A DNA stretch of 64,000 bases from an uncultured Candidatus Rokubacteria bacterium (GCA_963747235.1 CAVVEU010000013.1:64001-128000); one strand, 5' to 3'. Numbered from the stretch's first letter, positions 7,126-26,898 are shown. Program-made: numbers and translations. The notes: generated from the letters alone by a model not told the origin.

Positions 7126-7782
7126 ATGACGGCGGCCTCGCCGCTGGTCTTCGTCGTGGACGACGACCCCTCCGTCCGGAAGAGCCTGACTCGGTTGCTG
7201 GAGTCGGCCGGCTACACGGTCGAGGCGTTCGCGTCGGCCCGGGAGTTCCTCGCGCGCGAGCCGCACGCCGGCCCGTGCTGCCTGGTGCTGGACGTGCGGA
7301 TGCCCGGCCTGACCGGGATCGAGCTGCAGGAGATGCTGGCGGCCACCGGCCGCCGCATGTCCATCGTCTTCGTCACCGGCCACGCCGACGTCCCGACGAG
7401 CGTCAAGGCCATGAAGGCCGGGGCGGTCGATCTGCTCACCAAGCCGGTCGACGTCGAGGATCTCATCGCCGCGATCCAGCGAGCCGTGACGAGGGACGAG
7501 CACGATCGGGCCGCGAGACCCGCCTCGCGGAGATCCGGCGGCGCGTCGGACCTGCTGACCGCGCGCGAGACCGAGGTGTTCGCCCGCGTCGTGACGGGCA
7601 TGCTGAACAAGCAGATCGGCGCGGAGCTCGGCATCGGCGAGAAGACGGTCAAGGTGCACCGCGCCCGGGTCATGGAGAAGATGCAGGCGGGCTCGGTCGC
7701 CGAGCTGGTCCGGCTGGCCGACGAGGTGGGCGTGATCGTCCCCGGGAGCTCATTGGCCGCCGGGCGGACTCGGCCACCGTGA
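7126..7782 (+). CDS. FixJ/NodW-type response regulator (REC + LuxR HTH)
   Basis: [58 protein letters not shown]. Confidence 0.93.
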
Positions 7783-8165
7783 CGGCCGACGCGCTCGTCC
7801 TGGTGTGGGTGAGCGAGACGGCGATGGCGCTCAGGCGATAACGGGCGAGCAGCTCCAGGGCCCTCGGGCCGCACACGATACGCGGCGCGCCGTAGCCGTC
7901 GAGCGCGACCGAGAAGTCCTCGGGGCCGATCAACCCCCGCGCGGTCTCACGCGGGAAGAGCTTGAGGCAGGCTTCCTTGGCCGCCAGCCGGGCGGCGAGG
8001 TCTGGCCGCCCGGCTCGGTCCTTCCCCGACGTCGCTCAGCTCCACCCTCGAGAAGAGCTCGATCAGGTCTTCGGTGGGTGTGCGTAGGAGCAAGCGCTCG
8101 ACGCGTGCGATCTCCCCGGTGTCGAGGCCGCAGCGAGTGAGGGGCCTGGTGATGTCCGCCATCAC
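7670..8165 (-). CDS. acpS: Holo-ACP synthase (AcpS-type phosphopantetheinyl transferase), frameshifted, 3' end uncertain
   Basis: [39 protein letters not shown], assembled from ORFs 7947-8165 and 7670-7933. Confidence 0.8.
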
Positions 8166-9450
8166 GGGGCGTCGCCGGCCGCGGCTCGGAAGACGAGCGC
8201 GGTGTTGGACCCGCCGAAGCCCCGGTTCAGGACGAGCGCCACATCACTGCGGAGCGCCTGGGGCAGGGCGGACACCGGCAGGCTCCCGACGTCGGGATCC
8301 GACTGGCGCAGGGTCGCCACGCCGGGCACGACGCGGTGGCGCAGGGCCGCCAGGGCCAGCACGCTGTCCAGGATGCCCGAAGCGGCGAGGGGATGGCCGA
8401 AGGCCCACTTGAACGCGGTGACGGGCGGGGTGGCGTCACCGAACACCCGGCGGATGGCCAGCGCTTCGGATGCGTCGGATGCCCGGGTGGCGCTGCCGTG
8501 CGCGACGATCATCCCGACCTCGGCCGGGCGCAGCGCGGCGTCGTCGAGCGCGAGCGCGATCGCGTCCGCGAGCCCGTCGCCGTCGGCGCGGATGGGCAGC
8601 AACCCTTCCGCCTCCGACGGAGCACCCGCTGCCGAGGAACTCGCCGAAGACCGTGGCGTCGGCGCTCGGCCGCGGCCTTCTCCGTCTCGAGAAACAGCGC
8701 GCCGGCCCCTTCGCCCAGCACGCTGCCGCTGCGCCGGACGTCGAAGGGCCACAAGCCATCCGCGCTGAGGAGTCCGAGCTGATGGTAGTAGAGGACCATC
8801 TGGGGCTCGATTGGCGCATCGTGCCCGACCGCCAGCGCGCGATCGGCCTCGCCGGCGCGCAGCGCCGCGGCCGCCTCCGCGATCGCCAGGGATCCGCTCA
8901 CGCTGTGGTTCGTCAGGCAGGCATTCGGCCCTTTCAGGCCGTGGCGGATGCCGACGTGGCACAGGACGTTGTTGGGCATGGACCGCAGGAGCCACATCGG
9001 ATTCACGGTGGCGGTGAGCTCACGGCCGAAGGCCCGGAGATCTCCGTTCGCGGCGGTGAGGAGCGGGAAGAACTCGTACTCGTTCTGGTAGCTGCCCCCG
9101 CCCATGCCGACGTAGACGCCGGTGCGGTCATTGACCGTGCCCGCGGCAGCGGCTTCCAGGCCCTTGCGGTAGGCGACGAATCCGGAATCGTCGAGGGCCC
9201 GGGCGGCCGCGTACAGGCCGAGGAGGTCGCTGCGCTGGAGCAGCCGGTGGAGCTTGCGATCCTCCACCAGGGCGCGCGGATCCAATCCGGTGATCTGGCC
9301 GGCCAGTGAGGTCGGCCAGATCGATGTGTCCCACTGCTGGATGGGCCGGACCGCGGATCGGCCGGTCCACACCGCACCCCAGATCTCCCCTGGAGACTTG
9401 CCGGCGGCGCAGATGGCGCCGGTCCCGGTCACGACCACCCGGACGCTCAC
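8162..9450 (-). CDS. Ketosynthase-fold protein lacking catalytic Cys (chain-length-factor-like), frameshifted
   Basis: RVVVTGTG start; TNHSVSG where active KS has TACASG; HGSAT; KWAFGH; NRGFGGSN. Confidence 0.85.
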
Positions 9451-23472: not shown

Positions 23473-26400
23473 GTGCTCCCCAAGTACCGATTCCTCGATC
23501 CCCCGGCGGTTCCCACGACGCTGGTTGACCTGCTGCGCGAGCGGGCAGAATGCCAAGCGGACGATAGGGCGTATACGTTTCTGGTTGACGGAGAATCCGA
23601 GGAAATCCATCTGACCTATCACGAGCTCGACCGGCAGGCCCGGGCCATCGGAGCATGGCTGCAGTCTCAGGGCCTGAAGGGCCAGCGGGCCATGCTCCTC
23701 TACCCACCCGGGCTCGATTTCATCGCGGCGTTCTTCGGCTGTCAGTATGCCGAAGTGGTGGCGGTGCCGGCGTATCCGCCGCGAATGAACCGCGCGCCGG
23801 CCGGCATCCAGGCGATTGCCGCTGATGCCGGCGCGACCGTCGCGCTCACGAGCGACGCAGTGCTGGAGCGAATCGGGCCACTGATCGACCAGACCGCAGA
23901 CCTGAAGGCTCTGCGCTGGCTCTCCACCGACGGACCCGTTCATGGGGTCGAAGGGGGATACGAGGGGGAGTGGCGGCGACCGCAGATCACCGGCGAGACG
24001 CTCGCGTTCCTTCAGTACACCTCGGGCTCGACGGGGACCCCCAAGGGCGTGATGCTGAGCCATTCGAACCTGCTGCATAACTCGGCCCTGATCGCCTATG
24101 CCTTCGAGCACACGCGGTCCGCTTCTGGGGTGTTCTGGCTGCCGAGCTACCACGACATGGGGCTGGTCGGTGGGATTCTCCAGCCGCTGTACGTGGGCCG
24201 TCCGAACATCCTGATGCCGCCCATGGCGTTCATTCAGAAGCCGTTGCGCTGGCTCCAGGCCATATCCCGCTACCGCGGGACAACGAGCGGTGGTCCGGAT
24301 TTCGCGTTCGACCTCTGCGTGCGCAAGATCACGCCGGATGAGCGGGCCACGCTGGACCTGAGCAGCTGGACCGTGGCCTTCAGCGGAGGCGAGCCGGTGC
24401 GGGCAGACACCCTCGATCGGTTCGCCGAGACGTTTGGGCCTTGCGGCTTCCGGCCGGAGGCCTTCTACCCTTGCTACGGCCTGGCCGAGGCGACACTCCT
24501 GGTGGCGGGCGGGCACAAGACCGCTCCGCCCATCGTCCGCTGGTTCGATGCCAGATCGCTGGAGGCCGACCGCGCCGTGCCGACCGCCGCCAACGACGAC
24601 GGGGCCCGCCCCCTGGTCGGTTGCGGACAGACCATGCCCGACCAGCAGACGGTCATCGCCGATCCGAGCCGGCTGACCCGCATGCCGGCCGGCCAGGTCG
24701 GTGAGGTCTGGGTAGCGGGGCCAAGCGTCGCGCAAGGATACTGGCGACGGACCGACGAATCGGAGCAGACGTTCCGCGCGCGCCTGCACGACACCGGCGA
24801 AGGCCCGTTCCTGCGTACCGGTGACCTCGGCTTCACGCACGACGGCGAGCTGTTCGTCACCGGCCGGCTGAAGGACATGCTGATCATCCACGGCCGGAAC
24901 CATTACCCACAAGACCTGGAAGCCACCGTGGCCAGGAGCCACGCGAGCCTGCGGGCCGGCTGGGCCGCCGCGTTCACGGTCGGGGAGGGTCCGGAACAGC
25001 AGGTGGTGATCATCGTTGAGCTGGAACGCCATCAGCGGGCGGCGGCGGCCCAGGTGGTCGGGGACATTCGCCGTGACGTGGCCAGAGAGCATGATCTCGT
25101 GGTCGACTCGATCGCGCTCGTGCGCGCCGGAACTATCCCCCGGACTTCCAGCGGCAAGATCCAGCGGCACGCCTGCCGTGATGCGTTCCTGGGTCTACGC
25201 CTTGACGTGGTGGCCGATTGGCATCGGGCCGCAAGCGACCGGCCCGTCGTGGCTCCCGCCTCTTCGCAGGGCCGGGTCCCGAGATCCGAGGAGCGAGGCC
25301 GTGACGCGGCCGCTGAGCCGCGTCGGCCGGAGGCCGCTCGAGGTCCGGCGCCTTTGAACGGTGGTCGCGTCGCGCTGCGCGCGCAGACCCTCGAGGCGAC
25401 CGGGGAGATCGTGCTCGACGTGGTCCGGGCGATCGGCAAGGACCGGACGGTGGGGATCGGGTTGGACTCGTCCATCGTCGAGATGGGGCTGGATTCGCTC
25501 GAACGGATGGAGATCGTCGCGGCGCTGGAGAGCCACTTCGGCGGCCGGCTCCCGGACCAGGTGGTCGCCGAGATGTACACGTGCCGCGAGGTCATCGACG
25601 CGGTCCAGAAGTACCTGGTGGACGGCGCGGGACTCGCGCGGGACGTCGGGGGCGGTCGCGATCCCGGCGGAAGACCATCGGTTCGATCTCTACCCGGAGT
25701 ACATCAAGCTGAAGGAGAGCTTCGAGATGCTCGAGGCGACCGGGCTGACGAACCCGTTCTTCCGGGTCCACGAGCGGGTCGCCAACGACACGACCGTGAT
25801 CGGCGGCCGGGAGCTGATCAACTTCTCGAGCTACAACTACGTGGGGATGTCCGGCGATCCGGTGGTCTCGGCCGCGGCGCAGGCCGCGATCGATCGCTAC
25901 GGGACGTCGGTGTCGGCCAGCCGCCTGGTGTCAGGCGAGACGGGCCTGCACCGCGAGCTGGAGCGGGGGATCGCCGACTTCATCGGCGTCGACGACGCGA
26001 TCGTCTTCGTCGGCGGGCACTCGACGAACGAGACCACCGTGGGCCACCTCTTCGGGCCGGGCGATCTGATCCTGCACGACGCCCTCGCGCACAACAGCAT
26101 CGTCCAGGGTGCCATGCTGTCCGGCGCCCAGCGGCGCCCGTTTCCCCACAACGACTGGGAGGTCGCTGGACCGGGTGCTGGCCGACCTGCGCGGCGATTA
26201 TCGCCGCGTGCTGGTCGCGATCGAGGGCGTCTACAGCATGGACGGCGACATCCCGGACCTGCCCCGGTTCATCGAGGTCAAGAAGCGCCACAAGGCCTTC
26301 CTGCATGGTCGACGAAGCGCACTCCGCCGGCGTGCTGGGCCCTCACGGCCGCGGCATCGGCGAGCACTTCGGCGTCAATCCCGCACGACGTCGATCTCTG

Positions 26401-26898
26401 GATGGGCACGCTGAGCAAGTCGCTTCGGGAGCTGCGGCGGGTACATCGCCGGCGACCGGGCGATGGTCGGAGTATCTCAAGTACACCGCGCCGGGCTTCG
26501 TGTACAGCGTCGGCATCTCGCCGGCCAACGCGGCCGCCGCCCTCGCCGCGATCCGGCTCTTGACCGACGAGCCCGAGCGGGTCGCCGCGCTTCACGAGCG
26601 GGCGCGCCTGTTCCTCGCGCTGGCCCGGGCGCGCGGCTTGAACACCGGCCTGAGCCACGACTCTCCGATCGTGCCCGTGATCCTGGGGGATTCGCTCCAT
26701 TGCCTGCGGCTGTCGCAGGCAATGTTCGACCGCGGGATCAACGTGCAGCCGATTCTCTATCCCGCGGTCGAGGAGCGGGCGGCGCGGCTGCGCTTCTTCA
26801 TCACCGCCGGCCACACCGAGGAGCAGATCCGCCACGCGGTCGACGTGACCGCGGAGGAAGTCGGCCGGATCAATCCGAAGTACCTGCGCCGGATCTAG
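23473..26898 (+). CDS. Fatty acyl-AMP ligase - ACP - PLP alpha-oxoamine synthase (SPT/BioF/RkpG-like) fusion, frameshifted in the 3' half
   Basis: [88 protein letters not shown]. Confidence 0.88.

Follow-up and report, generated by a model that had tools for sequence, protein, structure and literature searches.

Whether two sets of lipid genes lying side by side in an uncultured, soil-type Candidatus Rokubacteria bacterium serve one product is the question raised by a 64,000-nucleotide stretch of its assembly (GCA_963747235.1, CAVVEU010000013.1:64001-128000). This stretch, referred to below as the window, corresponds to positions 64001-128000 of contig C13 of genome G000, of which C12, C17 and C40 are other contigs. 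Close database proteins carry names that indicate Rokuibacteriota/Methylomirabilota. Between positions 7670 and 26898 it carries homologues of bacterial ceramide genes, including a FAAL-ACP-alpha-oxoamine synthase (AOS) fusion, a YghO-family GNAT and an extended SDR, together with a fatty-acid synthase (FAS) block of FabL, FabG, an extended acyl carrier protein (ACP), a dehydratase (DH), the ketosynthases (KS) KS2 and KS3, and AcpS. In Escherichia coli BL21(DE3) and Caulobacter, the ligase AasR, the special ACP AcpR and Spt jointly make 3-oxo-sphinganine, while yghO and an epimerase-like gene are listed as orthologues of two further Caulobacter genes, and a role for them in E. coli has been proposed (PMC9386255).

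The comparative analysis reported here indicates that, by homology, the locus is a mosaic of ceramide genes and a widespread FAS block. The cluster probably makes some ceramide-type lipid, and the chances appear evenly balanced that the N-acyl chain of this lipid would be supplied by a re-routed lipid A fatty-acid module. The analysis adds the clipped acyltransferase, the joining of ceramide and FAS genes, and an AOS that groups with enzymes of capsule loci. A preliminary description of the same DNA had proposed a sphingolipid or aminolipid cluster with a dedicated FAS, an interpretation that is partly supported by the present data.

The FAS block has lost its lipid A acyltransferase domain

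With the extended ACP as query, 6125 relatives were retrieved; in species genomes at least 571 relatives were found, and the best 80 of the latter were fetched. They belong to Burkholderiales, Verrucomicrobiota, Legionella and others, and the order FabL-FabG-ACP-DH-KS2-KS3-AcpS is conserved across them. A PF03279 lipid A acyltransferase was present in 59 of these best 80 outside loci, and AOS, YghO, SDR, PAP2, GNAT1, lipoprotein or GT-B genes were found in the available flanks of none of them, so that the FAS block is not dedicated to the cluster in the way first proposed. When the 80 outside loci and nine phylum loci were restricted to those extending 1.5 kb past KS3, the acyltransferase was present in 60 of 64, or in 62 if L094 and L097 are included, in which it abuts KS3 and was missed by the rule. 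Where both AcpS and the acyltransferase are present (59 loci), a single reading frame encodes the two in 54 cases.

In the window, likeness to such an AcpS-acyltransferase fusion (that of G066) stops at the domain junction near position 7760, where a response regulator starts on the opposite strand. AcpS ends in the same manner in G020 and G003, and it has disappeared as well in C12, G078 and G184. The AcpS gene of the preliminary description is present, and by alignment it corresponds to the N-terminal part of a protein that in other loci continues into a lipid A acyltransferase domain, which has here been cut off. Within the phylum, a close ACP is found in 17 genomes, and a module-type acyltransferase in 10 of 251, all of which have the module ACP. 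Four of the seven close-ACP genomes lacking the module acyltransferase have a close YghO on the same contig, two (G040 and G088) have short or ending contigs, and the seventh, G184, is discussed below. None of the 251 genomes was found to combine the module acyltransferase with a YghO of the close type, and this acyltransferase was not found in G000, G020, G003, G078 or G184.

Among acyltransferase-less copies, dN/dS of the FAS genes ranged from 0.15 to 0.36, similar to that of YghO and SDR (0.11-0.22), which indicates purifying selection and argues against a mere relic. In G156, G157, G162 and G165, which belong to another genus, SDR-YghO is immediately followed by a more distant FAS that also has an extended ACP. 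KS3, noticed before as a Cys-less KS, carries Ser at the position of the catalytic Cys (NHSVSG), and the window copy falls in a clade with Legionella and other module KS3 proteins. KS1, which is also present in G020, C12, G003 and G078, forms a clade separate from the module KSs and on this basis is no part of the lipid A-type module. The extended ACP matched generic ACPs only among PDB sequences, over its first 70 residues, and scored 38.4 bits (cut-off 83) on NF005079, which is presumably the AcpXL model.

A cispentacin-type type II polyketide synthase (PKS) was considered and rejected, as the AmcF and AmcE models scored below cut-off and below FabF/FabZ on the intact proteins. Another KS-KS-lipid A acyltransferase group at C40:409000-414400 is just 27-34% like the window module. 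About half of the FAS blocks in Burkholderiales and Verrucomicrobiota (L020-L089) are preceded by ICMT-like and PapA/condensation-like genes, and the same upstream set includes two unannotated 355-aa paralogues.

Ceramide gene homologues and the AOS clade

The ceramide-type genes were compared, as their intact G020 copies, with the RefSeq genes yghO-ligase-epimerase-ACP-spt of E. coli B. YghO was 36% identical to E. coli YghO over 370 aa (E 8e-82), the FAAL domain 33% to AasR over 571 aa, and the AOS domain 34% to Spt over 388 aa. The SDR was 30% identical over 315 aa to the E. coli B ECD epimerase and is the best match of that epimerase in the genome, a likeness to be read with the caveat that extended SDRs form a large family and that the window copy is frameshifted. 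Full-length homologues thus exist for four of the five genes of the E. coli B ceramide locus, in agreement with the ceramide-type genes named in the preliminary description. By its domains, the fusion would combine parts of AasR, AcpR and Spt in a single chain. Neither YghO nor GNAT1 gave a useful match when searched directly against PDB sequences.

In a tree of 36 rows, the AOS belongs to a clade (100/100) that also contains AOS genes placed after type I PKS genes in capsule loci of Sinorhizobium, Pseudomonas, Caballeronia and Microbulbifer; at 50-57% identity these are its nearest named relatives. The labels RkpG and WcbT presumably apply to these capsule-locus enzymes, the records of which read PLP aminotransferase family protein. 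A Planktothrix PKS-AOS and fusions from Streptomyces and Bacillus are in the same clade, and BioF and Kbl constitute a third group, with BioF on a long branch. The AOS thereby groups away from validated Spt, an outcome of the kind that the preliminary description had itself counted against its proposal, though together with other lipid- or PKS-linked AOS, and its sequence marks it as other than a canonical Spt. Among PDB sequences, Spt, a thermophile AOS and Kbl match it with similar scores. Its ASR motif has Ser where Kbl has Val, which presumably excludes glycine-only use and does not separate Ala from Ser.

The AOS clade was encountered in seven of the 251 phylum genomes, at eight loci, seven of which have a YghO gene nearby; at the eighth (G009) the contig ends within the fusion. 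The loci with YghO derive from four branches of the AOS clade and contain different YghO subfamilies. G078 and G076 have the same YghO subfamily, GT-B and ABC-2 as the window, but a separate Spt, ligase and small ACP, and this Spt passes NF047599 (502.5 bits, cut-off 500). Because of this gene context, i.e., the YghO neighbours and the exchange for a true Spt, the capsule/PKS-linked AOS clade may be able to perform the function of Spt. Both halves of the cluster, the ceramide genes and the FAS block, co-occur twice in G000 and also in G020, G003 and G078, as had been anticipated.

Two loci of the phylum display other arrangements. In G133 (L236, contig C66 of that genome), FAAL and ACP-AOS are followed by SDR, a fatty-acid hydroxylase, YghO and a sphingolipid delta-4 desaturase. 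Here an AOS from the non-Spt clade is accompanied by compactly arranged tailoring genes that resemble a eukaryotic set. In G004 (L235:1917-14725) a capsule-type 2551-aa type I PKS is followed by AOS, YghO, PAP2 and SDR. The fusion family itself is large: of 7999 proteins scored, 4538 are 626-1994 aa long, and the named ones are from Rokuibacteriota and Planctomycetes. Planctomycete-like fusions (L153-L231) are solitary among housekeeping genes, and conserved lipid neighbours were not seen there.

Proposed pathway

The genes observed, their homologies and their clades, together with the lost acyltransferase domain, the co-occurrence of both halves and the purifying selection on the block, allow a pathway to be proposed, with the steps in the order given in PMC11087976. 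On the basis of domain homology and the gene swaps in relatives, the FAAL would adenylate a fatty acid and load it onto the ACP domain of the same chain, after which the AOS would condense the acyl group with L-serine, as the most likely amino acid, and so form a 3-keto long-chain base. FabL, FabG, DH and KS2/KS3, aided by KS1, would elongate an acyl chain on the private 143-aa ACP, giving a long-chain or very-long-chain fatty acid. YghO could then N-acylate the base with that chain, replacing the lipid A acyltransferase of the module, and the SDR would reduce the 3-ketone. In an optional and weakest step, PAP2 and GT-B might provide the lipid with a phospho- or sugar head group, acyl chains might be remodelled by GNAT1 and the papain-like lipoprotein, and the ABC-2 pair might export the product. 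The chain length is suggested by analogy: rhizobial AcpXL/LpxXL genes lead to C26-C34 chains (PMC11901934, PMC4402001), Legionella lipid A contains 27-oxo-octacosanoic acid (PMC6927915), and lpg0361-0363 are KS genes plus a lipid A acyltransferase to which no product is assigned (PMC9112007). It remains tentative, and rather doubtful, that a rewired very-long-chain module yields C26-C34-type ceramides and that, at the same time, the capsule/PKS-linked AOS represents a second Spt family.

Alternative explanations

Several results weigh against a ceramide assembled from the module chain. All three NCBIfam Spt models miss the AOS (314, 285 and 244 bits, with cut-offs of 640, 500 and 670, respectively), E. 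coli Spt and its kin form a separate 98/96 clade that excludes the window AOS, and E. coli Spt scores higher on the Kbl of the genome (169 bits) than on the fusion AOS (146 bits). The fused ACP domain had no blastp match to E. coli AcpR. Neither YghO nor SDR was seen in the available flanks of any of 19 metagenomic fusion loci, which had been picked from 79 for a match reaching the AOS domain and several of which are short. On the side of the module, G184 has an acyltransferase-less block with a contig break upstream and no YghO match. The KS3 copies of G020, G003 and G078 form one branch (SH 99) among acyltransferase-linked copies in a fast tree, and the ceramide-linked copies therefore probably trace to one event and are not independent. 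The very long chain, moreover, is argued from analogy.

The ceramide genes could also use ordinary fatty acids, with the FAS block as a passenger on a mobile island and its chain directed to lipid A via housekeeping LpxL, or to another lipid via GNAT1 and the lipoprotein. LpxC and ordinary LpxL-type genes are present in all five genomes tested, and LpxL could take the chain. In the stretches examined, the close YghO of G081, G123 and G125 is not accompanied by the FAS block, and G076 keeps KS3 only, so that the block is dispensable; gene order and content are shuffled between relatives, and an insertion sequence (IS)-like element lies 3 kb from the cluster. This explanation is nevertheless considered unlikely, as in G000, C12, G020 and G003 the block has the same orientation as the exporter and KS1 and is coupled with them, is under purifying selection despite having no acyltransferase of its own, and has a counterpart in the second FAS type that is likewise paired with YghO. 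The product may instead be an N-acyl amino-alcohol built on alanine (a 1-deoxy base) or another amino acid, or a lipid anchor of a surface glycan, the role supposed for AOS enzymes of capsule loci. This reading is favoured by the type I PKS that the nearest named AOS relatives follow in capsule loci, by the Ser of the ASR motif, which presumably fits Ala as well as Ser, and by the position of GT-B beside NeuB, cytidylyltransferase and HAD genes in G078 and Methylomagnum. It is judged unlikely because PAP2 and GT-B, should the base be their substrate, require a C1 hydroxyl, because G078 and G076 have a true Spt in place of the fusion, and because genes for capsule export were not seen in the window cluster.

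Decay of the window copy, with SDR and GT-B as pseudogenes, would leave at most an undecorated 3-keto lipid, or reliance on the C12 copy. The density of frameshifting indels in these two genes (23-48 per kb) and the internal deletion of GT-B in G020 point in that direction, but the pattern of these indels matches poorly polished long reads, relatives' contigs are free of several of them, and SDR is intact in C12, G020 and G003, which makes decay quite improbable. A pimelate-activating, BioF-like biotin enzyme unrelated to the lipid genes is barely credible. Although bioF is the best NCBIfam model for the AOS (347 bits, cut-off 426) and many database copies are named 8-amino-7-oxononanoate synthase, the AOS lies apart from E. 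coli BioF in the tree, bioD and bioB at the family cut-off were found in none of the five fusion-bearing genomes (86-98% complete), and the neighbours are lipid genes.

Organization of the locus and quality of the assembly

The window was scanned as six-frame fragments, 95 against Pfam and 40 against NCBIfam. As its assembly is rich in frameshifts, intact copies of relatives were used as references, i.e., G020 (87-95% nucleotide identity), contig C12 (74-98%), G003 and G081. The genes named in the preliminary description were present in the claimed order and orientation according to Pfam/NCBIfam and the intact copies (Table 1). Due to the frameshifts, GNAT1, SDR, the lipoprotein and GT-B gave no or weak matches in the window; they were confirmed on the G020, G081 and C12 copies.

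Table 1. Genes of the lipid cluster in window coordinates and the basis of their assignment
Gene product	Position	Strand	Basis
AcpS-type phosphopantetheinyl transferase	7760..8162	-	NCBIfam acpS models; PF01648 on G020 copy; one indel at 8001
KS3, ketosynthase without catalytic Cys, chain-length-factor-like	8162..9450	-	PF00109/PF02801; NHSVSG motif
KS2, FabF-type, Cys-His-His	9447..10748	-	NF005589, 438 bits (cut-off 387)
FabA/FabZ-like dehydratase, 278 aa, two matched stretches	10745..11581	-	PF07977; TIGR01750
Extended ACP, 143 aa, module marker	11581..12012	-	PF00550 on residues 10-63 only
FabG-like ketoreductase	12022..12781	-	Pfam/NCBIfam
FabL-like enoyl reductase	12789..13557	-	NF005975 is best model
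ABC-2 permease	13554..14696	-	PF12698, PF01061
ABC ATPase	14693..15632	-	PF00005 in two frames; one indel
KS1, extra ketosynthase, Cys-His-His	15638..16948	-	Best model PRK07103, below cut-off
GT-B fold protein, heavily frameshifted	17021..17997	-	Weak TIGR04396; model of G081 copy
Extended SDR (epimerase/CerR-like), heavily frameshifted	17985..18945	-	PF01370 on G020 copy; 37 frameshifting indels
YghO-family GNAT, ceramide synthase homologue	18963..20099	-	PF00583
Lipoprotein, permuted papain-like (NlpC/P60) fold	20242..21081	-	LAAGC lipobox-like end of signal
GNAT1, FemAB-like double GNAT	21078..22235	-	PF13480, weak PF04339 on G020 copy
PAP2_3 (Aur1-like) membrane protein	22215..23177	+	PF14378, PF01569
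FAAL-ACP-alpha-oxoamine synthase fusion	23473..26898	+	PF00501, PF00550, PF00155

The largely coupled minus-strand run noted before is borne out by seven stop/start overlaps (GNAT1/lipoprotein, ABC/ABC-2, ABC-2/FabL, ACP/DH, DH/KS2, KS2/KS3 and KS3/AcpS), from which PAP2 and the fusion diverge. A promoter and terminator scan of positions 19900-23600 gave chance-level results only. Compared with intact orthologues, most genes have 0-6 frameshifting indels per kb. Nearly all indels are ±1 or ±2, net length is retained, half of them are beside a like base, and third-position bias persists; the pattern looks like that of unpolished long reads and, with low probability, could reflect decay. No RNA data set was among the strong matches listed, and four sequencing runs contained relatives only (shares 0.10-0.12), with the SDR covered too thinly to fix its frame. 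The fusion has the predicted FAAL, ACP and AOS domains, but its 1141-aa frame is open by coincidence over six +1 indels and is partly the wrong frame; the G020 counterpart is a clean 1139-aa protein.

The whole region including flanks is duplicated at C12:1-28744 (L015, L016; 74-98% identity), without the PAP2-GNAT1-lipoprotein cassette and AcpS and with SDR and GT-B intact; this copy is either a paralogue or a second strain in the bin. Regulatory genes flank the cluster at 2714-7782, namely those of a Crp-family regulator, two GAF histidine kinases and a response regulator of the FixJ type; similar regulators flank it in G003, G078 and C12. On the other side are two collagen-repeat/OmpA lipoprotein genes in tandem, with a BON-domain gene behind them (27502-28760), and the IS-like element with an HTH domain (29945-31301), which is not in the C12 copy or G020.

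Optional accessory genes

PAP2, GNAT1, the lipoprotein and GT-B are optional among relatives. PAP2-GNAT1-lipoprotein behaves as a movable cassette that is missing on C12 and recurs on C17, where at C17:129216-133252 (L142) lipoprotein-GNAT1-PAP2 lies beside an ABC-2 permease, with no ceramide or FAS genes in the 20 kb examined. A lipoprotein fragment was also seen on contig C4. PAP2_3 exceeds the PF14378 cut-off and contains AFPSGH and HYxxD, which are presumably the motifs of Aur1-type inositol phosphorylceramide synthase. In the lipoprotein, H102 and C201 are invariant in 84 rows, and its best fold match is TseH (Z 10.9, root-mean-square deviation (rmsd) 4.0, 141 aligned), followed by YiiX (Z 8.2); a Foldseek search gave no match at E<=0.001.

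GT-B was found in seven of 251 genomes, all among the eight with a close YghO, and is absent in G003. Its fold was confirmed on a model of the G081 copy, for which the best match to a GT-B protein has a Z of 17.1 (rmsd 5.5, 276 aligned), with fold ranks tied among epimerases and many transferases. NeuB neighbours GT-B in two loci; in G078 (L134:3436-7804), HAD phosphatase, NeuB, cytidylyltransferase-ROK and radical SAM genes directly follow it. A full NeuB is located elsewhere in G000 and G020, and G081, G076 and G125 have weak NeuB matches only. A role of GT-B as a sialyl/Kdo-transferase was considered, but in view of the weak NeuB matches and the tied fold ranks no donor is assigned. In G078 and G081, MlaE/F/D and an auxiliary lipoprotein lie within the cluster.

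Significance and comparison with known systems

Environmental lipidomics has detected bacterial sphingolipids with acyl chains of 32-34 (up to 39) carbons, for which the accessible sections of the report name no genes (PMC11334938), and the present locus offers a cloneable candidate route to long-chain bacterial sphingolipids. The fusion provides a one-gene test of whether an AOS clade missed by Spt models makes long-chain bases. If it does, Spt-based surveys undercount sphingolipid producers, and if the clade is a second Spt family, carriers of Planctomycete-like fusions would be sphingolipid producers and sphingoid anchors would be suggested for rkp-type capsules. A literature search that did not cover subscription papers found, among the papers listed, no FAAL-ACP-AOS fusion in ceramide synthesis, no joining of ceramide and FAS genes, no sphingolipids in this phylum and no activity for RkpG/WcbT.

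With the rkp-1 (Sinorhizobium) and wcb (Burkholderia) capsule loci the window shares the AOS clade, but its AOS is part of a fusion with FAAL-ACP and has YghO and an extended SDR as neighbours, and type I PKS or capsule genes are not among the window genes at 7670-26898. The rhizobial acpXL-fabZXL-fabF2XL-fabF1XL-adhA2XL-lpxXL operon (PMC11901934, PMC4402001) resembles the window in that a private ACP, dehydratase and KS pair are combined in one operon. Unlike that system, the window has FabL/FabG rather than AdhA2XL, the acyltransferase is missing, and the ACP remains below the AcpXL model (38 bits, cut-off 83); on these grounds the window block is no AcpXL/LpxXL system. Orthologues are found in Legionella lpg0358-0363 (PMC9112007), at 53-59% for the ACP, 55-58% for KS2 and 41-44% for KS3, in a block that is followed by the PF03279 acyltransferase which the window lacks. 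Finally, the Caulobacter crescentus/E. coli BL21(DE3) ceramide pathway (AasR/AcpR/Spt, bCerS YghO/Aca, CerR Epi; PMC9386255, PMC11087976) has ligase, AOS, GNAT and SDR homologues in the window at 30-36%. By sequence, the locus resembles this pathway but departs from it in an AOS that is not recognized as Spt. The logic of ligase, carrier and AOS is common to both, whereas the window fuses these three functions, draws its AOS from another clade, and adds a private FAS block, an extra KS, an ABC-2 exporter and the optional PAP2, GNAT1, lipoprotein and GT-B genes.

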